DNA of 64,000 nucleotides from positions 139,574 to 203,573 of the forward strand of contig JAJFKB010000003.1 of assembly GCA_021773395.1 (NCBI GenBank), read 5' to 3'. Positions 3,124 to 37,369 of the stretch are shown piece after piece. Below the pieces are notes generated by a model, which saw only the letters and a program-made list of their open reading frames with translations, had not been told where the DNA came from and did not search any database. Made by a program: the position numbers and the translations under genes. Position 1 is the first letter of the stretch; the number at the start of each line of letters is the position of its first letter. This stretch comes from Gammaproteobacteria bacterium (GTDB lineage Bacteria > Pseudomonadota > Gammaproteobacteria > Pseudomonadales > IMCC2047).

Positions 3124-4817
3124 TTCTTATTTTATCGCTCGCAGTTGTTAGTTATCTGCTATTACAAGCCTGGAATGAGGACTATGGTCAGCCAGTTCCT
3201 GTGACTCCGGTATCCCTTGAGCAAGGGGGCGCTTCTGAAAAGCTGGCCGCCACAGGAATACAAACGGAAATAGCCACGGATCTACCGACAGCTACCGCAG
3301 CATCCACACTGGCCAGTAAAGATATCCCTGCAACCGCTGAGACTTTGCCTACCGTTAGCAAAGCCGCTATGAATAGAATAACCGTTGAAACGGATGTATT
3401 GTCATTACAGATAGATCCTGTAGGCGGCGATATTGTTTACGCAGCTTTGCGTGCTTACCCAAGATTAATTAACCAGCCCGAAGATCCGTTTGTGCTGCTT
3501 GAACAAAATTCAGAAAGGACTTATATCGCCCAAAGCGGTTTGATTGGCACCAACGGTCCCGACGCAAATCCGGCGGGACGGCCCTTATTCCAAACCAAAC
3601 AAGCAAATTATGTGTTAGATAACGGGCAGGATGAGCTAACTGTTGATCTGACTTATACCAGTCAAGACAAGATAAGCATTACCAAACGCTATAGATTCTT
3701 ACGCGGTGACTATTTGGTAAAGGTTGAATATCTGATCGACAACCAATCCGCAGAGCCATGGCAGGCAAACTTTTTTGCACAATTTAAAAGAGATAATAGC
3801 CCGGATCCCAGCCAAACAACCAGCATGGGTATGAAATCCTTCGTCGGAGCAGCCATCACTTCTGTGGACAAGCGCTATGAAAAACTGGATTTCGAAGACT
3901 TTGCTGAAACACCATTAAAGCTAAAGAATACTGGTGGCTGGATTGCCATGCTGCAACACTATTTCGTTGCCGCATGGGTACCCAACAAAGAGTTACAGCA
4001 TAATTATCAAACACGCAAAAACAGTAAGGGAGAAAATATCGCAGGTTTGGTCAGCCCTGCTGTGACAGTCGTCCCTGGCTCAACCGCAAGAACCGGAGCT
4101 GAACTTTACGTCGGGCCAAAAGCACAGGGTAGATTAAGTGAAATTTCACCCTCACTGGAGCTCACCGTCGACTATGGCTGGCTTTGGTTTATTGCACAAC
4201 CTTTATTCTGGTTACTCTCTACCTTGCATGGATTTTTTGGCAATTGGGGTTGGGCCATTATCTTTACTACCCTAGTAGTAAAACTCCTTTTCTTTCAGTT
4301 GTCTGCTACCAGCTATAAGTCTATGGCCAATATGCGTCGTGTTGGCCCTGAATTACAGCGACTCAAGGAAAGATATGGTGACGACCGACAAAAAATGTCT
4401 ACAGCCATGATGGAGCTCTACAAAAAGGAAAAAATAAATCCCTTAGGAGGTTGTTTGCCTATTCTAGTGCAAATGCCTGTTTTTATTGCGCTATATTGGG
4501 TTTTATTAGAAAGTGTTGAATTGCGACAAGCACCCTTTATGTTCTGGCTAAATGATCTATCGGTCAAAGACCCTTATTTCATTCTGCCGATTGTAATGGG
4601 TGCCACCATGTTCTTCCAACAAACACTGAACCCAGAGCCACCCGATCCGATGCAGGCCAAGGTTATGAAGATGATGCCCATCATGTTCACTTTTTTCTTC
4701 CTCTGGTTCCCGGCTGGCCTCGTTCTTTACTGGGTGGTGAATAACGTTTTATCGATTGCTCAACAATGGGTCATTACCCGCCGAATAGAACAGGCTGCGG
4801 CAGCAAAGGGAAAATAG
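3105..4817 (+). CDS. yidC: Membrane protein insertase YidC
   Basis: 570 aa protein with an N-terminal anchor (MDAQRIVLILSLAVVSYLLLQAW), a large periplasmic domain, and a conserved C-terminal 60 kDa IMP core (KINPLGGCLPILVQMPVFIALY). Confidence 0.95.
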   Translation: MDAQRIVLILSLAVVSYLLLQAWNEDYGQPVPVTPVSLEQGGASEKLAATGIQTEIATDLPTATAASTLASKDIPATAETLPTVSKAAMNRITVETDVLSLQIDPVGGDIVYAALRAYPRLINQPEDPFVLLEQNSERTYIAQSGLIGTNGPDANPAGRPLFQTKQANYVLDNGQDELTVDLTYTSQDKISITKRYRFLRGDYLVKVEYLIDNQSAEPWQANFFAQFKRDNSPDPSQTTSMGMKSFVGAAITSVDKRYEKLDFEDFAETPLKLKNTGGWIAMLQHYFVAAWVPNKELQHNYQTRKNSKGENIAGLVSPAVTVVPGSTARTGAELYVGPKAQGRLSEISPSLELTVDYGWLWFIAQPLFWLLSTLHGFFGNWGWAIIFTTLVVKLLFFQLSATSYKSMANMRRVGPELQRLKERYGDDRQKMSTAMMELYKKEKINPLGGCLPILVQMPVFIALYWVLLESVELRQAPFMFWLNDLSVKDPYFILPIVMGATMFFQQTLNPEPPDPMQAKVMKMMPIMFTFFFLWFPAGLVLYWVVNNVLSIAQQWVITRRIEQAAAAKGK

Positions 4818-4893
4818 AGAAGAAGCGACACCAAGCAATTATTAAGATGCTGCCTGAAAATCGAATTATTGTGAGTTTCAGAAAGATACCAGC

Positions 4894-6282
4894 ATGATAA
4901 TTACAGATAGCGACACAATCGTAGCACAGGTCACTCCAGCTGGTCGTGGTGGGGTGGCTATTGTGCGTATCTCAGGTCCCCTCACAAAATCTATTTCTAA
5001 AAAGCTATTAAAACAGGATATAGCGCCACGTTATGCGCTTTTTACCTCATTTTGCGGCACGATAGGAACAAAAAACAATCAAATAATTGACCAGGGTATT
5101 GCTCTTTGGTTTCCGGGTCCACAATCTTTTACTGGTGAAGACGTGCTGGAATTACAGGGCCACGGTGGTCAGGTAATTGTTGATTTATTAATCAGAAATA
5201 TCCTTGCTGCCGGTGCTCGTATGGCCCGTCCCGGAGAGTTTTCAGAGCGCGCTTTCCTTAATGACAAACTGGACCTGGCTCAGGCTGAAGCCATTGCTGA
5301 CCTGATTGACAGTAGCTCCGAGCAGGCGGCGCAAAGCGCTTTACGTACACTCCAGGGTGATTTTTCAAAACGTATTAATGCTCTGGTAGAGGCTCTTATT
5401 CAATTACGTCTCTATGTAGAGGCCGCTATTGATTTCCCGGAAGAAGAGATAGATTTCCTGGCTGACGGTAAAATAATGTCAGAGCTTGACGAAATCATAG
5501 CTATTTTACAGCAGGTTATAGAGCAAGCCAGTTTTGGTACAGTGTTAACCGAGGGAATGACAGTGGTAATGGCCGGCTTACCGAATGCCGGAAAATCCAG
5601 CTTGTTAAACCAACTCTCAGGTCGAGATAGCGCGATTGTTACAGACATACCTGGCACCACCAGAGATTTACTACGAGAGCATATACAAATAGATGGTATG
5701 CCTTTGCATGTTATTGATACTGCAGGGTTAAGAGTAAGCGGTGACGCAATAGAGCAGGAAGGTATAAAACGAGCCTGGCAAGAGATTAAACAGGCCGATC
5801 GAATTCTATTGGTAGTGGATAGCAGCACTCTAACGGCTACTCACCCACACGACATCTGGCCTGAATTTATAGACCAGCTGGACTCGCTCGAAAAAATCAC
5901 CATTATCCAAAATAAAGTGGATCGTTCAAAACTGTCAGTAAAATTAATTGAGCGAAATACAGATAACCCGTTCCCCATAATAAGATTGTCTGCAAAAGAG
6001 GGCCTGGGCTTGGATCTTCTAAGACAACACCTGAAATCCTGTATGGGCTTTACTAGCTCTGTAGAAGGCTCTTTTAGTGCCCGCAGGAGACACCTGGTCG
6101 CGCTTCAGCAGTCGTTAAAACTTCTGGATAGCGGTAAACAACAGCTGGAAAGCGCCAACGCGGGAGAATTGCTTGCTGAAGACCTGCGGTTGGCGCAACA
6201 ATGCCTCTCAGAAATTACCGGGGCTTTCACTAACGATGATCTTTTGGGCAAAATATTTTCCAGTTTTTGTATTGGAAAGTGA
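4894..6282 (+). CDS. mnmE: tRNA modification GTPase MnmE (TrmE)
   Basis: G-domain motifs GLPNAGKSS and DTAG are present, along with the terminal CIGK motif. Confidence 0.95.
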
Positions 6283-9223: not shown

Positions 9224-10009
9224 TTGGGTAAAATTATTGCAGTGACCAACCAAAAAGGTGGTGTAGGAAAAACCACCACCGCCGTGAATCTGTCTGCATC
9301 ATTGTTTGCGATTAAACGAAAAGTATTGATGGTAGATCTGGATCCACAGGGTAATGCGACTATGGGTTGCGGTGCGGATAAAAACCAGCTGGAATATTCT
9401 GTTTACGATCTTCTAACGGGGCGCTGTGCGATTACACAGGCAATTATAAAAAAAACAGCGGCTGGATTTGATTTGTTGCCGGCGAATGCCGATTTAACAG
9501 CGGCCGAGGTCGAGCTGATGTCCCTTGAAAACAGGGAAAATAGGTTGCGCGATGTACTGTCAACCGTTAAAGAAGAATACGACTATATCATAATAGACAG
9601 TCCCCCATCTCTAAGTATGCTGACCGTAAATGCGCTGGTGGCTGCACAGAGCGTTATTATTCCAATGCAATGTGAGTATTATGCCCTGGAAGGATTAACG
9701 GCATTAATAAGTACCATTAACGGTATTGCTGGTGGTGCCAATCCCAAGCTGAAAATCGAAGGCCTATTACGGACCATGTATGATCCCCGCAACAGTTTAA
9801 GTAAAGATGTTTCGAATCAATTGGTCAGCCATTTTGGTGAAAAGGTTTACGATACGGTGATACCCCGTAATGTACGCTTGGCCGAAGCGCCCAGTTATGG
9901 ATTGCCAGCGCTGATCTATGACCGAAAATCCAGGGGAGCACTGGCCTATCTGGCTTTGGCAGGGGAAATTCTAAGAAAATCCAGATCGCAGCATGCGGTT
10001 GCAGTCTAG
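9224..10009 (+). CDS. parA: Chromosome partitioning ATPase ParA (Soj)
   Basis: Deviant Walker A NQKGGVGKTTT in a 261 aa protein, upstream of parB. Confidence 0.9.
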   Translation: MGKIIAVTNQKGGVGKTTTAVNLSASLFAIKRKVLMVDLDPQGNATMGCGADKNQLEYSVYDLLTGRCAITQAIIKKTAAGFDLLPANADLTAAEVELMSLENRENRLRDVLSTVKEEYDYIIIDSPPSLSMLTVNALVAAQSVIIPMQCEYYALEGLTALISTINGIAGGANPKLKIEGLLRTMYDPRNSLSKDVSNQLVSHFGEKVYDTVIPRNVRLAEAPSYGLPALIYDRKSRGALAYLALAGEILRKSRSQHAVAV

Positions 10010-32133: not shown

Positions 32134-33243
32134 ATGAAAGTAACAAGATTAAGGGCTTTAATGTGGGCGCTACTCTCAACTTTGCTAGTGGCCTGTGGGG
32201 GGAATCAAGAGGCATCATCCGTTGCTAAAACAGCACAGCAGCCTCAACAGGTGATCAAATGGAAAATGGTCACCACCTGGCCGAAAAATTTTCCGGGGTT
32301 AGGTACCGGCGCGAATTACATGGCCAAAGCCATTACCGAAATGAGTGGCGGTAGACTCGAGGTCAAAGTATACGGCGCCAACGAATTAGTGGGTGCGCTG
32401 GAAGTCTTTGATGCGGTCTCACGCGGCACAGCGGAAATCGGTCATGGTGCGTCTTACTACTGGAAAGGCAAATCCGTCGCCGCGCAATTTTTTACCGCCG
32501 TGCCCTTTGGCATGAATGCGCAGGAGATGGCTGGCTGGCTCTACTATGGCGGTGGCATGGAACTATGGGAAGAGGTCTATGAACCCTTTGGATTGGTGCC
32601 GCTGGCAGCTGGAAATACCGGAACCCAGATGGGGGGCTGGTTTAATAAGGAGATTAATTCCATCGAGGATCTCAAGGGGTTGAAAATGCGCATCCCCGGT
32701 TTAGGTGGCGAAGTATTTAGCCGTGCCGGAGGCGTGTCCGTACTGGTACCGGGTGGTGAGATCTTCCCCTCTATGCAAACCGGTGCGCTGGACGCCACCG
32801 AATGGGTCGGGCCTTATAACGACCTGGCTTTCGGGTTGCACAAAGTGGCTAAATATTACTATTACCCCGGCTGGCAGGAACCTGGCCCGATCCTCGAAGC
32901 GATGGTGAACAAGCAAGCCTTTGACGCCCTGCCCGCTGATTTGCAGGCCATCGTGCGTGAAGCGGCTAAAGCTACCCATATGGATATGCTGGCCAATTAC
33001 ACAGCTGAAAATAACCGAGCGCTGAGAACCCTGGTCAATGAGCATGGCGTACAGCTGCGCAAATTCCCCGATGAAGTGATTAGTAAGTTGCGGGAAATAT
33101 CCGCGCAGGTGCTGGAAGAGGAAGCCGCAAAAGACCCGATCACCCAGAAAGTCTACGAATCGTTCAAGGCCTTTAACAGTCAGGTGGTAGAGTGGCATAG
33201 GATTTCGGAGAAAGCGTATTTGGAGGCTAGGGAGGAGGATTAG
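32134..33243 (+). CDS. TRAP transporter substrate-binding protein (DctP-type, COG4663-like), probable lipoprotein
   Basis: The signal peptide carries a lipobox (LLVAC). The body resembles TRAP solute receptors of the mannitol/chloroaromatic subfamily, judged from memory. Confidence 0.8.
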   Translation: MKVTRLRALMWALLSTLLVACGGNQEASSVAKTAQQPQQVIKWKMVTTWPKNFPGLGTGANYMAKAITEMSGGRLEVKVYGANELVGALEVFDAVSRGTAEIGHGASYYWKGKSVAAQFFTAVPFGMNAQEMAGWLYYGGGMELWEEVYEPFGLVPLAAGNTGTQMGGWFNKEINSIEDLKGLKMRIPGLGGEVFSRAGGVSVLVPGGEIFPSMQTGALDATEWVGPYNDLAFGLHKVAKYYYYPGWQEPGPILEAMVNKQAFDALPADLQAIVREAAKATHMDMLANYTAENNRALRTLVNEHGVQLRKFPDEVISKLREISAQVLEEEAAKDPITQKVYESFKAFNSQVVEWHRISEKAYLEAREED

Positions 33244-33324
33244 GTTGTTTTGTCATGGGATTGACTTCATGCTGGGTTAGGGCTTTTATCGACCCAAAGC
33301 GGTTATCGATAGGGCTCTGGTCGG

Positions 33325-33683
33325 AAATAAGGCTTGACCCCATTTGTGCTTTAAATTGGAGAGGCTATTACCGGGGTGCAACGGCTGTTTTATTTGAAGG
33401 TGTCCAGTATTCGACTTTTTGATATATGGAGATTCTTGGTTTCGCCTCTTGGCGAGTTCACTTTCTTTGAAGCGCCACAAAGAAAACGAACCAAAAGAAA
33501 TGGCGCCCCGTTTCCGTCGCCCTTCGGGTTCCCTGCGCTTCTCGCCGGTTAACGGTCGCTGCGGACTCGCGTTGCTCAAACAGTCCTCGCTCTTGTCCGT
33601 TAACCGCCTGCGATGCTCGGCGACTTCAAAGGGGTGGATTGTGTAATACCTTAATTTTTAAAGAAAATGGGACGTATTTATTT
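33325..33683. repeat. MITE/REP-like extragenic element with imperfect terminal inverted repeats and an internal 10-bp perfect inverted repeat
   Basis: The ends are AAATAAGGCTTGACCCCATTT (33325-33345) and AAATGGGACGTATTTATTT (33665-33683), in the pattern AAATAA-N-CCCATTT and its complement. An internal CGGTTAACGG (33546-33555) pairs with CCGTTAACCG (33597-33606). Both strands give low-complexity pseudo-ORFs. Confidence 0.4.
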
Positions 33684-33760
33684 TTATTGAACTTCCTTGC
33701 CGGGAACAACCCACTAGAACCCACCATTAGATTGAATGCTGACGCTGGACAGGCTCGTCC

Positions 33761-33799
33761 CTAAAATACCTGCCCCGGCAGCCAGGTCACCATATGTTG
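33761..33799 (-). pseudogene. Relic copy of the dctM 3' end (last 9 codons plus stop)
   Basis: The minus strand reads ..QHM VTWLPGQVF* while the intact dctM ends ..PQL VTWLPGQVF* at 34276-34305. Identity is 27/30 nt and an in-frame stop lies further upstream in the relic. Confidence 0.7.
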
Positions 33800-33909
33800 G
33801 ATAGATGGTTAATTCGCCATCCTGAAAGCATAGCTTTTTTGAATCTTGTCCTATCGCTTAAGATGCGGGGGCCGTTGACTCCGACCCCAACACCAAACCC
33901 TTAAGCCGC

Positions 33910-34170
33910 CTAGCGGTGACCCGGCGGAGGGGGTGGTGGATTGGTGGGTGGCCCCTTGCGACCCTTGGTACAGGCCTCGGCTCCCGGCGTTCCCTCCCAG
34001 GCATGCTGGGGCATGGCCCGACATCTATCCAATGTCATAAAAGGAGGTTGTTTAACCCAGCTGCCTTTCGGGACATTACAACAACGACGCTCGTTGGCAA
34101 CGGCCGGGCCGCCAGCGAATATAAACACCATAAGAGCAGCAGTGATACAGAATGAACTTGTTGTTTTCAT
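33910..34170 (-). CDS. Small secreted Cys-rich protein with poly-proline C-terminus (unknown function)
   Basis: The start is taken at MKTTSSF (ATG 34170), preceded by the strong SD GGAGGAGG. The signal peptide is ..FAGGPAVA|NE. The mature ~60 aa has 4 Cys (a CC pair plus two single Cys) and ends GPPTNPPPPPPGHR. The gene is visibly GC-rich relative to its flanks. Confidence 0.55.
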   Translation of the reverse strand: MKTTSSFCITAALMVFIFAGGPAVANERRCCNVPKGSWVKQPPFMTLDRCRAMPQHAWEGTPGAEACTKGRKGPPTNPPPPPPGHR

Positions 34171-34275
34171 CTTTACCTCCTCCTTTACATGCGGTGTGGG
34201 TGACAAATGGTATTGTCAGTGGACAATCCATGAGCAAGAAGTATAGGTGGGTATAGGAAGAATTAACACCCCTGC

Positions 34276-35643
34276 TTAAAACACCTGCCCCGGCAACCAG
34301 GTTACCAGTTGCGGCCAATACGATATCAACGCCAACATGATCAGCTGAATGACAATAAAGGGGATCACGCCGCGATAGATCTGGCTGGTGGCAACGGATT
34401 CGGGGGCGACGCCTCTCAGGTAGAACAGTGCGAAGCCAAAGGGTGGTGTCAGGAAGGAGGTTTGCAGGTTGATGGCGATCATAATCCCGAGCCAAACCGG
34501 GTCGAGACCCATGGTGAGCAGTATCGGTGCGACGATCGGTACCACCACAAAGGTGATCTCGATAAAATCGAGGAAGAAACCCAGGAAAAACATCACCAGC
34601 ATTACCAGGATCATGGCTGCCATCACGCCGCCGGGCAGGTTGCCGAGAAATTCACGGACCAGATCATCGCCGCCGAACCCCCGGAACACCAGTGAAAATA
34701 CGGCGGCACCAATTAAAATCAAAAACACCATACTGCTGACTTGCGTGGTGGCGCGCATTACGTCCCGTAACATTTGCAGTGTAAAACTGCCTTTGCTGAT
34801 GGCCAGTAATATTGCACCCATAGCGCCAACTGAGGCCGCTTCAGTGGGTGTGGCCAGTCCGGCCAGGATAGAGCCCAGTACCATTGATACCAGCAGCAGT
34901 GGCGGTGCCAGTGCTTTGGCAATCTGTAGTGCTGAGGTGTTACCCAGTTCTTCCTCTGGGTGAGCGGGTGCCGCAGTTGGTTTAAAAACGGCGACCAGTG
35001 ACACGTAGAGAATATAGAGACACACCAGTAGCAGACCCGGAATCAGCGCGCCCATAAACAGATCGCCGACGGATACAGTTTCCGGCGAGAAGACACCCAT
35101 TTCGAGTTGTGCTTCCTGATAGGCAGAGGACATGACGTCGCCGAGCAGTACCAGTACGATCGAAGGTGGAATAATCTGCCCGAGGGTGCCTGCCGCACAG
35201 ATAGTACCCGTGGCAAGCGGGACGTCATAACCGCGCTTTAGCATGGTCGGCAGCGACAGCAGGCCCATGGTCACCACCGTTGCGCCAACGATACCGGTAC
35301 TGGCCGCCATCAGCATGCCGACCAGAGTGACGGAAATGCCCAGCCCGCCGCGCAGTTTACCGAACAATGAGGACATGGTATCCAGCAGTTCTTCAGCGAC
35401 GTTGGATTTTTCCAGCATCACACCCATAAAAACAAACAGCGGCACGGCGACCAGTACTTCGTTGGTCATAATGCTATAGATTCGATTGGGTACCGCTTCA
35501 AGGAATACCAGGTCGAAGGAGCCGGTGACAAAACCGATCAGTGCAAATAGCAGTCCGGTGCCTGCCAGTGAGAAAGCCACTGGGTAACCAGCGATCAGCA
35601 CCAGAATGGCAACGATAAACAGCGCGAGAGACATGAACTCCAT
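34276..35643 (-). CDS. TRAP transporter large permease (DctM)
   Basis: 455 aa polytopic protein typical of DctM, overlapping the dctQ stop. Confidence 0.9.
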   Translation of the reverse strand: MEFMSLALFIVAILVLIAGYPVAFSLAGTGLLFALIGFVTGSFDLVFLEAVPNRIYSIMTNEVLVAVPLFVFMGVMLEKSNVAEELLDTMSSLFGKLRGGLGISVTLVGMLMAASTGIVGATVVTMGLLSLPTMLKRGYDVPLATGTICAAGTLGQIIPPSIVLVLLGDVMSSAYQEAQLEMGVFSPETVSVGDLFMGALIPGLLLVCLYILYVSLVAVFKPTAAPAHPEEELGNTSALQIAKALAPPLLLVSMVLGSILAGLATPTEAASVGAMGAILLAISKGSFTLQMLRDVMRATTQVSSMVFLILIGAAVFSLVFRGFGGDDLVREFLGNLPGGVMAAMILVMLVMFFLGFFLDFIEITFVVVPIVAPILLTMGLDPVWLGIMIAINLQTSFLTPPFGFALFYLRGVAPESVATSQIYRGVIPFIVIQLIMLALISYWPQLVTWLPGQVF

Positions 35644-36200
35644 TAACGTGTGTCTACCGATGCTGAGTTGACCTGGTTTTTAGGCCCAGTGATGATTAAC
35701 AGGCTTTTAGTCGCCTGGGCAAGGCCCTGCAGCAGCAGGGTAGCAGGCATAAGCAGCAGCAGCGTCTTCAGGATGTAGATCGCATCAAGCCCTCCGGCCT
35801 CGCGTGATCCTTCGTGGTAGGACCACGCGCTGGCCACGTACTGCCAGGAGATGCTAAAAATAAAAAGGCAAAAGGGAATCAATAGCAGCAGCGTGCCCAA
35901 AAGATCAACCCAGGCCTTTTTTCTGACGGACATGGGGCGATAGAAGATATCGACTCGAACATGACCTTCATGACTGAGTGTATAGGCGGCGCCCATCAAA
36001 AATATCAGGCTATGCAGATAAAGCAGCGATTCCTGCATCGCGATCGAGCCGATATTGAACAGGTAACGCAGAACCACTATTACAAAAGTAACCAGCACCA
36101 ATGCCAGCGTTAACCAGGAAATGCTCCGCCCAAGCAATTCGCTGAACCTGTCGACACCGTTAATGAAGGACTGCATGAAGGCTTGCCGGGCTTGCTGCAT
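35643..36200 (-). CDS. TRAP transporter small permease (DctQ)
   Basis: 185 aa protein with about four transmembrane segments, immediately upstream of dctM. Confidence 0.85.
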   Translation of the reverse strand: MQQARQAFMQSFINGVDRFSELLGRSISWLTLALVLVTFVIVVLRYLFNIGSIAMQESLLYLHSLIFLMGAAYTLSHEGHVRVDIFYRPMSVRKKAWVDLLGTLLLLIPFCLFIFSISWQYVASAWSYHEGSREAGGLDAIYILKTLLLLMPATLLLQGLAQATKSLLIITGPKNQVNSASVDTR

Positions 36201-36721: not shown

Positions 36722-37369
36722 ATGAGCAATAAATCATTGGTTAGCAGGCGCTGGTTGCTGAGTCATCGCTACTGGATATTTGACCTGGATGGCACCCTCA
36801 CCCAGCCCCAGCATGATTTCCAAGCGATCAAAAAGGCATTGGGGATCCCGCTTGATGCTGATATTCTGAATTACCTGGGTGGCTTGCCTAGTTGGCAGGC
36901 AAAGCAAAAGTATGTATTACTGGATCAGATTGAGTATGGTCTAGCGGGACAGGCTCAAGCGGCACCGGGTGCTAAGGCATTACTGGATTCGCTCGCGAGT
37001 GAAGGCGTCGAGATGGCGATACTGACACGTAACTCCAAGGCGAATGCGCATCTTGTATTAGAGGTGCTGGGGTTAAGCCATTATTTTAAAAGCAGCCACG
37101 TTCTGGGGCGAGAGCAGGCAAAGCCCAAGCCTAATCCAGAGGGCGTGGAATGGCTTTTGAAGCGATGGCAAGCGGAGACTGTTCAAGCGCTTATGGTAGG
37201 TGACTACCTCTATGACTTGCTTTGTGCCAAAAATGCGGGTGTTGCAGCGGTGCATGTCGACAGCGGAGGGGTTTTCCGCTGGCCGGAAAAAATGGATCTG
37301 GGAGTGAAAGATTTGAAACAGTTACTGGAGTTATTCAGAGGTTCCCTGGCAAAATCTAAGCTCGTGTAG
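36722..37369 (+). CDS. HAD-superfamily hydrolase (phosphatase-like)
   Basis: Motif I is FDLDGTLT, and the later motifs are LTRNS and GDYLYDL. The substrate is unknown. Confidence 0.75.
   Translation: MSNKSLVSRRWLLSHRYWIFDLDGTLTQPQHDFQAIKKALGIPLDADILNYLGGLPSWQAKQKYVLLDQIEYGLAGQAQAAPGAKALLDSLASEGVEMAILTRNSKANAHLVLEVLGLSHYFKSSHVLGREQAKPKPNPEGVEWLLKRWQAETVQALMVGDYLYDLLCAKNAGVAAVHVDSGGVFRWPEKMDLGVKDLKQLLELFRGSLAKSKLV

Follow-up and report, generated by a model that had tools for sequence, protein, structure and literature searches.

The prophage e14 is flanked, according to PMC13626634 (citing Hill et al. 1989), by an intact icd gene and the C-terminal pseudogene icdC. For loci of rhs, of CDI (contact-dependent inhibition of growth) and of type VI secretion, the mechanism put forward is either circular intermediates or homology-facilitated illegitimate recombination, without an integrase (PMC2935791, PMC5361080). 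The latter process brings in foreign DNA through one homologous and one illegitimate joint, and usually deletes recipient DNA (PMC3240628). Conjugation experiments in E. coli have demonstrated a further route, in which single crossovers of circles duplicated a gene end around the insert; the duplications measured 109-950 bp (PMC3240628). The locus described here is compared with these systems. It lies in a stretch of 64,000 nucleotides, termed the window, on contig JAJFKB010000003.1 of a bacterium of the Gammaproteobacteria, and concerns dctM, the gene for the large permease of a TRAP transporter, whose last 33 nt occur twice around an insert. The arrangement makes it fairly probable that about 0.5 kb of foreign DNA was inserted at the 3′ extremity of dctM independently of a recombinase, with duplication of the gene terminus.

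The two ends of dctM and the empty site

The dctM gene occupies positions 34276-35643 of the minus strand and is intact. Its open reading frame (ORF) of 455 amino acids (aa) scores 339 bits against TIGR00786, for which the cut-off is 268, and has orthologues with 95% and 90% aa identity in two related genomes (L002 and L003, respectively). Read on the minus strand, the working end of the gene at 34305-34276 is GTA ACC TGG TTG CCG GGG CAG GTG TTT TAA, and a second copy at 33790-33761 is GTG ACC TGG CTG CCG GGG CAG GTA TTT TAG. Both translate to VTWLPGQVF*. The original prediction, that the last nine codons and the stop of dctM occur twice in the same orientation, was exact in coordinates and letters. 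Its reading of the four differences between the copies as synonymous or stop-to-stop was equally accurate, all of them being third-position transitions when the stop codons are counted. The repeat reaches 2 nt upstream and 1 nt downstream of the codon block, which gives 33 nt at a spacing of 515, and the longest perfect run between the copies is 13 nt. The upstream copy, R1 (34275-34307, minus strand), is the working end of dctM with its TAA stop. The downstream copy, R2 (33760-33792, minus strand), is the displaced ancestral terminus and is referred to as the relic.

R1 and R2 form the strongest local direct repeat of the whole window, in which the repeat pattern has no further occurrence. 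In the core of the repeat 28 of 31 positions match; among 10 first-order Markov sequences with matched dinucleotide frequencies, the best pairs at offsets of up to 3 kb reached 22-24. The similarity of the relic to the dctM end thus stands under formal statistics. As the window comes from a metagenome-assembled genome (MAG), an assembly artefact has to be weighed together with chance similarity. This explanation is rendered extremely unlikely by the excess of matches over random sequence, by the in-frame position of the repeat at a gene end, by the selection recorded in the cargo gene (below) and by an independent Logan assembly (L001), which reproduces both repeats and the insert at 100% identity.

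The terminus GQVF, encoded by both copies, is absent from the 41 closest DctM homologues (P0010-P0050), the C-termini of which were read. Inspection of the repeat reveals a dyad, ACCTG-N10-CAGGT. The folds of R1 and R2 are not more stable than those of shuffled sequences. One DctM relative, P0017 (463 aa), carries an 8-residue C-terminal extension (…GKVFRGCYDVRY); this would be consistent with the loss of one T from the TTTT run before TAG, by frameshift or sequencing error.

Four related genomes were recovered through DctM, all of them distinct species-level lineages. L002 is a complete Pseudomonadales MAG (OZ246007) with 82.5% nucleotide identity over the dctQ-dctM stretch and 84.5% in dctM alone, and L003 is a MAG contig. 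L031, an ENA contig, is about 95% identical in nucleotides in the flanking genes, and L032, a Logan contig, has 84% nucleotide identity. In all four, dctM is uninterrupted, ends in TAG and is without the insert. Empty sites of this kind support the claim that DNA integrated into the 3′ end of dctM and that the end was regenerated.

The DNA downstream of R2 shows which of the two termini is the older. The flank at 33642-33759 (minus strand), together with the relic, aligns to the DNA directly after the dctM end of L003, positions 33792-33662 of the window corresponding to L003 6923-7057. The post-stop DNA of L002 is partly homologous to the same region, and a TTCAATA-AAATAAAT-CG motif within the flank is common to the window, L002 and L032. 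R2 is the old end of dctM, because this flank matches the post-stop DNA of the relatives, because R2 carries their TAG followed by GG and because the TAA of R1 is unique, the relic and all four relatives having TAG. R2 and its flank thus preserve the ancestral arrangement, into which 515 bp were inserted on the lineage of the window. The junction of R1 and the inserted DNA reads GGCAGGTGTTTTAAGCAGGGGTGTTAATTC, and the expected junction of an empty site would read GGCAGGTATTTTAGGGACGAGCC.

The contiguity of R2 with this flank also upholds the view that the relic was once functional. The accompanying statement that the relic decays upstream and acquires an in-frame stop did not survive the comparison. 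Similarity to dctM stops abruptly at 33792, the next 85 nt resemble the dctM 3′ regions of three genomes no better than shuffled sequences do (p=0.13), and the stop lies in unrelated DNA.

The ancestral position is also marked by a conserved element of 165 nt outside the insert (33478-33641, minus strand). With L002 7468-7635 it shares 91.7% identity, and it lies about 100 nt after the dctM stop in L002 and 119 nt after R2 in the window; it is not present in L031, L032 or L003. The element forms a long imperfect hairpin, and the DNA surrounding it is only about 82% identical to L002 or cannot be aligned. It has no Rfam match, and its fold is not more stable than shuffles. The Logan contig ends at the edge of the element (33481), and this break suggests that it may be a dispersed repeat.

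The insert and its copies elsewhere

Most of the insert consists of a core of 396 nt (33878-34273, minus strand), which matches two other loci, L030 and L023, and is composed of a leader, one small gene and the first half of a terminator hairpin. The leader measures 103 nt and contains a conserved TATACT at 34240-34245. The small gene (33910-34170, minus strand) is called as a gene in L001 and L024, is preceded by a strong ribosome-binding site, AAGGAGGAGG, at 34176-34185, and encodes 86 aa. The protein has a signal-peptide-like N-terminus, a mature part with four conserved Cys residues (CC...C...C) and a Pro-rich tail, so the earlier description of a single small secreted-protein gene was correct. 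A HMMER search of 1.84 billion representative proteins returned six members of the family at E ≤ 0.001, that of the window included, and a later profile search added one more. The signal peptide and an invariant CC...W...C...C pattern are common to all members found. No family in Pfam or NCBIfam scored above cut-off. The AlphaFold2 model is moderately confident, with a pLDDT of 80-88 in its core, for which no match was found among PDB folds (best E = 2.6). Compared with its copy in L030, the small gene has a ratio of nonsynonymous to synonymous divergence (dN/dS) of 0.08; together with the conserved family, this value indicates that the ORF is a real gene.

The original prediction described the insert as GC-rich and compositionally distinct. 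Its GC content is 52.4%; the window as a whole has 48.4%, and the genes on either side have about 54%. Only the 100 nt that encode the Pro-rich tail reach 70%, so this description is not sustained. Between the core and the relic lies a filler of 85 nt (33793-33877, minus strand) with no significant match to dctM 3′ regions, to the flanks of L030 and L023 or to any fetched locus. Neither terminal inverted repeats nor similarity to the DNA after R2 were found in the insert, and the tRNA and Rfam searches of it returned nothing. Viral contigs contain no copy of the repeat and no relatives of the small-protein family.

The 90% cluster of the small protein holds one other member, P0009, which is identical at 83 of 86 positions. 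It is encoded at L030, a locus in the genome of L002 that lies 475 kb from dctM, between the gene for a Pfam Mem_trans product and that for an EF-hand protein. Window positions 34273-33878 and L030 9897-10294 are 93.7% identical over 398 aligned columns. In the non-coding leader the two differ by 6 substitutions and 1 single-base gap in about 104 positions (93% identical), and the other genes of this genome are about 81% identical to those of the window. Between the same two genomes the synonymous divergence (dS) of the small gene is 0.18, compared with 0.74-1.74 for seven neighbouring genes, and it follows from this discrepancy that the core was exchanged laterally, long after the two lineages split.

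This age bears on the reverse history, in which the insert is ancestral and the relatives with empty sites lost it by recombination between the repeats. A 33-nt direct repeat can mediate precise deletion, and the relatives compared all belong to separate species-level lineages. Such a history would, however, need at least three independent precise losses, and the core is far younger than the split of the lineages. The genome of L002 carries the gene at another locus, and the origin of the duplication would be left unexplained. Ancestral presence of the insert is considered very unlikely.

A third copy of the core, 79.6% identical in nucleotides and with two -1 frameshifts, is found at 586-934 of L023, a metagenome contig of 2.4 kb. 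It sits between an alpha/beta-hydrolase gene and fragments of pmbA and is bracketed by a 62-nt direct repeat (457-518 and 1015-1076, 77% identical). The downstream repeat continues into an open pmbA 3′ end of 35 codons (...WLIKHMTVAGE*, 1015-1122), which matches at 13 of 29 positions a longer C-terminal fragment of PmbA located 850 nt beyond it. The longer fragment, at L023 1676-1978, covers positions 141-220 of Pfam PmbA_TldD_3rd. The core has thus twice been lodged between duplicated 3′ pieces of a host gene, different in length and sequence, a parallel that, coming from one short contig, is no more than suggestive. In all, three pmbA 3′-end pieces in direct order separate two small genes on this contig, which has no intact pmbA; the second small gene is a membrane-anchored ORF of 122-129 aa on the opposite strand. 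A search for other copies of the insert at gene 3′ ends had been suggested, and such copies exist in part. L023 provides one beside pmbA 3′ fragments, but L030 has no flanking direct repeat and its boundaries differ. Around five remote homologues (L025-L029) no convincing flanking repeats were found.

The homology between the window and L030 starts 2 nt past the dctM stop and ends in the loop of the terminator, which is complete in the L030 copy. The homology between L023 and L030 ends 8 nt past the stop codon of the small gene. An upstream sequence, TGTTTGTCT, was recognised by eye in both L030 and L023 and is not in the window. The core in the window is therefore truncated at both ends, and because its boundaries differ between the window, L030 and L023, the insert is not a discrete element.

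Site-specific integration would explain several features of the locus. The 515 bp would represent a very small integrative cassette that is non-autonomous, or else what remains of a larger island or prophage, whose integrase is encoded elsewhere and whose attachment site supplies a surrogate dctM end. Direct repeats that consist of the target-gene terminus and end at the stop codon would follow from such an event, as would synonymous differences with differing stop codons and the empty site of the relatives; the dyad within the repeat is a candidate for recombinase binding, and the flanking of e14 by icd and icdC, as given in PMC13626634, is alike. No integrase is present in the insert, however, and the original prediction was right that the surroundings hold no integrase or transposase. 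Over about 8 kb on the dctQ side, and as far as dctP and uvrD in the other direction, no recombinase, integrase or transposase gene was found. The core boundaries vary between the three copies, and the window copy is cut within its own terminator. The repeat is missing at L030 and is of unrelated sequence at L023, viral contigs hold no copies, and the independent decay of two large islands to the same single gene is implausible. Site-specific integration is consequently judged unlikely.

The neighbouring genes are housekeeping genes. DctP and UvrD/Rep are encoded on one side, and DctQ, a thioesterase, a HAD hydrolase, an MFS protein and SHMT on the other. The dctP gene (32134-33243, plus strand) is convergent with dctQM (34276-36200, minus strand) rather than part of the usual dctPQM operon, and L002 is alike in this respect. 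The spacer between dctM and dctP is a variable slot (window 33244-34275; L002 7369-9338; L031 5112-6520). It contains the small-gene insert in the window, genes for a TehB methyltransferase and a GNAT acetyltransferase in L002, and, in both L031 and L032, the gene for a secreted protein of 270 aa whose tail is PEP-CTERM-like. Beside the small gene of L030, an element of 264 nt (9585-9848) is bounded by terminal inverted repeats of 32 nt, 88% complementary, and resembles a miniature inverted-repeat transposable element (MITE). A 20-21-nt match to one of its arms is found at 37327-37347 of the window, where the HAD hydrolase gene has its 3′ end, and may be due to chance.

How the duplication arose

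In the favoured course of events, a foreign fragment of about 0.5 kb, carrying the gene for a small secreted Cys-containing protein with its own leader, would have entered the extreme 3′ end of dctM. The recombination would have been illegitimate or based on short homology, without a dedicated recombinase, and the final 33 bp of dctM would have become present twice. R1 completes the permease gene, so that the transporter was never truncated; R2, the displaced copy, is now non-coding. Two versions of this event can be envisaged. In version (a), the target is duplicated in one complex event; for example, replication could leave the dctM template just past the stop, copy foreign DNA and re-enter 33 nt upstream. 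In version (b), incoming DNA that already bears the dctM terminus of a close relative would recombine with the resident one, in the form of a Campbell-type single crossover or a 3′-end displacement.

The two versions are rated about equal. A slight lean to (a) is given because the core in a second genome is bracketed by a different, longer repeat and because both copies in the window share the lineage-specific GQVF. Version (a) is also favoured by its single step, by the composite nature of the insert, with its filler and a breakpoint in the hairpin, and by long repeats that vary between the two loci. At about 0.09 substitutions per site per branch, with 33 free and about 9 synonymous sites, about 3.7 differences are expected between R1 and R2, and the 4 seen fit the age that the core implies for (a).

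Version (b) is favoured by the synonymy of all four differences, by the presence of TAA in R1 alone, by the travelling of the dctM 3′ end with cassettes (below) and by the experimental precedent that a gene end borne on a small re-circularised fragment is duplicated by a single crossover (PMC3240628). The probability that four of four differences are synonymous is 0.003-0.018 if both copies drift. It is about 0.05 with R1 under selection, and this value applies because a copy under selection can show only synonymous changes. The derivation of the relic from a diverged allele, as put forward in the original prediction, therefore keeps the synonymy of all four differences in its favour but is insecure in view of the latter probability and the shared GQVF; the synonymous pattern favours (b) only moderately.

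Recombination in dctM itself was recorded among the relatives. A sharp breakpoint separates the window from L031 (dctM at 3744-5111) at about window position 35340, or dctM nt 300; dS is 0.12 upstream of it and 1.86 downstream. Segment 301-1140 of the L031 gene is equally far from every relative (dS 1.7-2.1), and this equal distance identifies L031 as the mosaic. The window dctM keeps its expected distance to L002 and L032 (dS 0.85-0.96), and the breakpoint belongs to L031 and not to the window. The last 225 nt or so of dctM in L031, together with the downstream PEP-CTERM gene, are L032-like, and the middle segment has its origin in a lineage that is as remote as L003. The dctM 3′ end is demonstrably a recombination junction in this clade, one that travels with downstream cassettes.

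A junction of this type invites the proposal that a linear donor, comprising a 3′ part of dctM, the core and the filler, recombined through a long dctM anchor and was closed by an illegitimate joint that falls 33 nt short of the resident stop codon. Such a mechanism has been documented for transformable bacteria and proposed for effector-immunity arrays of type VI secretion (PMC3240628, PMC5361080), and both the sharp breakpoint and the joint movement of dctM ends and cassettes in L031 and L032 would agree with it. The breakpoint is, however, attributed to L031. Sliding identity and maximum chi-square comparisons with L002 revealed no donor tract in the window dctM adjoining R1; their sole signal is a conserved patch of 120 nt, which is not contiguous with R1. 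Over roughly its final 100 nt the gene is about 86% identical to L002, compared with 94% for the core. The mechanism also typically deletes rather than duplicates recipient DNA (PMC3240628), and by inspection the junction microhomology is unconvincing, a CAAC being offset by 3 nt. Long-anchored recombination is therefore regarded as improbable, and equally so its implication that the 3′ part of the window dctM is foreign too.

Several points weigh against the recombinase-independent insertion of foreign DNA in the form favoured here. The four synonymous-type differences and the TAA confined to R1 favour (b) over (a) with a likelihood ratio of about 10. No donor arrangement, in which a dctM stop abuts the core, came to light, and no fetched locus provided a source of the filler. 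On its right side the repeat stops within 1-2 nt of the stop codon, a coincidence that neither version explains unless selection favoured an intact dctM and transcription of the cargo together with it. The sample holds no relative of the window lineage at ≥99% identity, and in the nearest one, L031, this part of dctM has been overwritten by recombination. The parallel in L023 comes from one metagenome contig of 2.4 kb; the small gene there contains two frameshifts, and no pmbA gene is joined to the left repeat.

The small gene and its leader could also constitute an unrecognised minimal mobile cassette, which would lack a recombinase, settle at the 3′ end of a host gene or immediately beyond it and duplicate a long terminus each time. 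The 33 nt of dctM, the 62 nt of the pmbA end and the row of pmbA 3′ fragments in L023 all fit such a cassette, the existence of which is nevertheless quite unlikely. If it were real, mini-cassettes of this type would build arrays similar to those of integrons, with no integron involved.

Comparison with known systems

The insertion at dctM is of interest as a clean and datable case in which a single orphan gene entered a chromosome without mobile-element machinery, leaving the host gene unharmed and its old end as a scar. The dctM-dctP spacer serves as a slot for differing accessory genes in related marine bacteria, with the dctM 3′ end as its recombination junction. For annotation, the locus is a warning that short in-frame ‘pseudo-termini’ downstream of genes mark insertions. 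It also adds a small family of secreted four-cysteine proteins without a Pfam or NCBIfam match.

A number of candidate identities were rejected. An insertion sequence, MITE or transposon was dismissed in the absence of terminal inverted repeats, with repeats of 33 nt here and 62 nt in L023 and a single copy in the window. Mutagenesis by a diversity-generating retroelement was discarded, as the mismatches (A/G, T/C, G/A and A/G) run in both directions and no reverse transcriptase is encoded among the neighbours. A tandem duplication of the downstream flank would not yield an insert that lacks similarity to the DNA after R2. No tRNA or tmRNA target or structured RNA was found, the repeat folding no more stably than shuffles, and an origin from a phage or satellite was rejected for want of viral-contig relatives of the protein or the repeat.

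Integron cassettes and small mobile insertion cassettes are similar to the insert in their size of about 0.5 kb and in their one small gene, often for a secreted protein, at differing loci in related marine bacteria. No RYYYAAC...GTTRRRY pair was seen at the 3′ end by inspection, for which no formal attC model was used, and no integrase is encoded among the neighbours. Unlike integron cassettes, the insert has unfixed ends, and its flanking repeats are host gene sequence.

The e14 prophage at icd, as described in PMC13626634, shares with the locus an insertion at the 3′ end of a housekeeping gene, a gene kept intact by a second terminus, a displaced terminus beyond the insert and mostly synonymous differences. 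It differs in being a prophage of 15 kb that encodes an integrase, has defined att sites and excises on SOS induction. The insert in the window comprises 0.5 kb and one gene, has no recombinase in or next to it and has ragged ends that differ between copies. Of the features of elements that bring a surrogate 3′ end, the repeats of the target-gene end and the empty site are present, but an adjacent recombinase and shared, defined ends are not. With no recombinase and no fixed ends, the insert is outside the integrase-borne class.

Displacement at rhs, CDI and type VI secretion loci is similar in that laterally acquired DNA, on recombining with the 3′ portion of a resident gene, orphans the previous end by shifting it downstream, and stretches of the gene are directly repeated. 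In L023 the successive pmbA 3′ fragments resemble such a displacement array, and in the window an orphan old 3′ end lies downstream in direct orientation, R2 being contiguous with the ancestral flank. In those systems, however, the new tip is a different toxin with an immunity gene, displacement being the point of the system. In the window the same nine residues end both termini, the repeat measures no more than 33 nt and the cargo gene lies separately, past the stop. A foreign origin of the new terminus would agree with the four synonymous differences and the unique TAA; yet the probability of that pattern under simple duplication is still about 0.05, and GQVF is shared. Because one and the same peptide is encoded at both ends and the cargo has a gene of its own, the locus does not belong to the polymorphic-toxin class.

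The crossovers of the conjugation experiments and the illegitimate joints of transformed DNA provide the remaining comparisons. In contrast to a Campbell-type case, the homology in the window amounts to 33 nt with four mismatches and a perfect run of 13 nt, which is below what RecA-dependent crossovers usually need. Homology-facilitated illegitimate recombination differs in the fate of the recipient DNA, of which 33 nt are here duplicated and not deleted, and no donor tract lies by R1. Set beside all of these systems, the locus is a well-resolved insertion scar, an ordinary footprint of gene gain of a known kind and not a new system.

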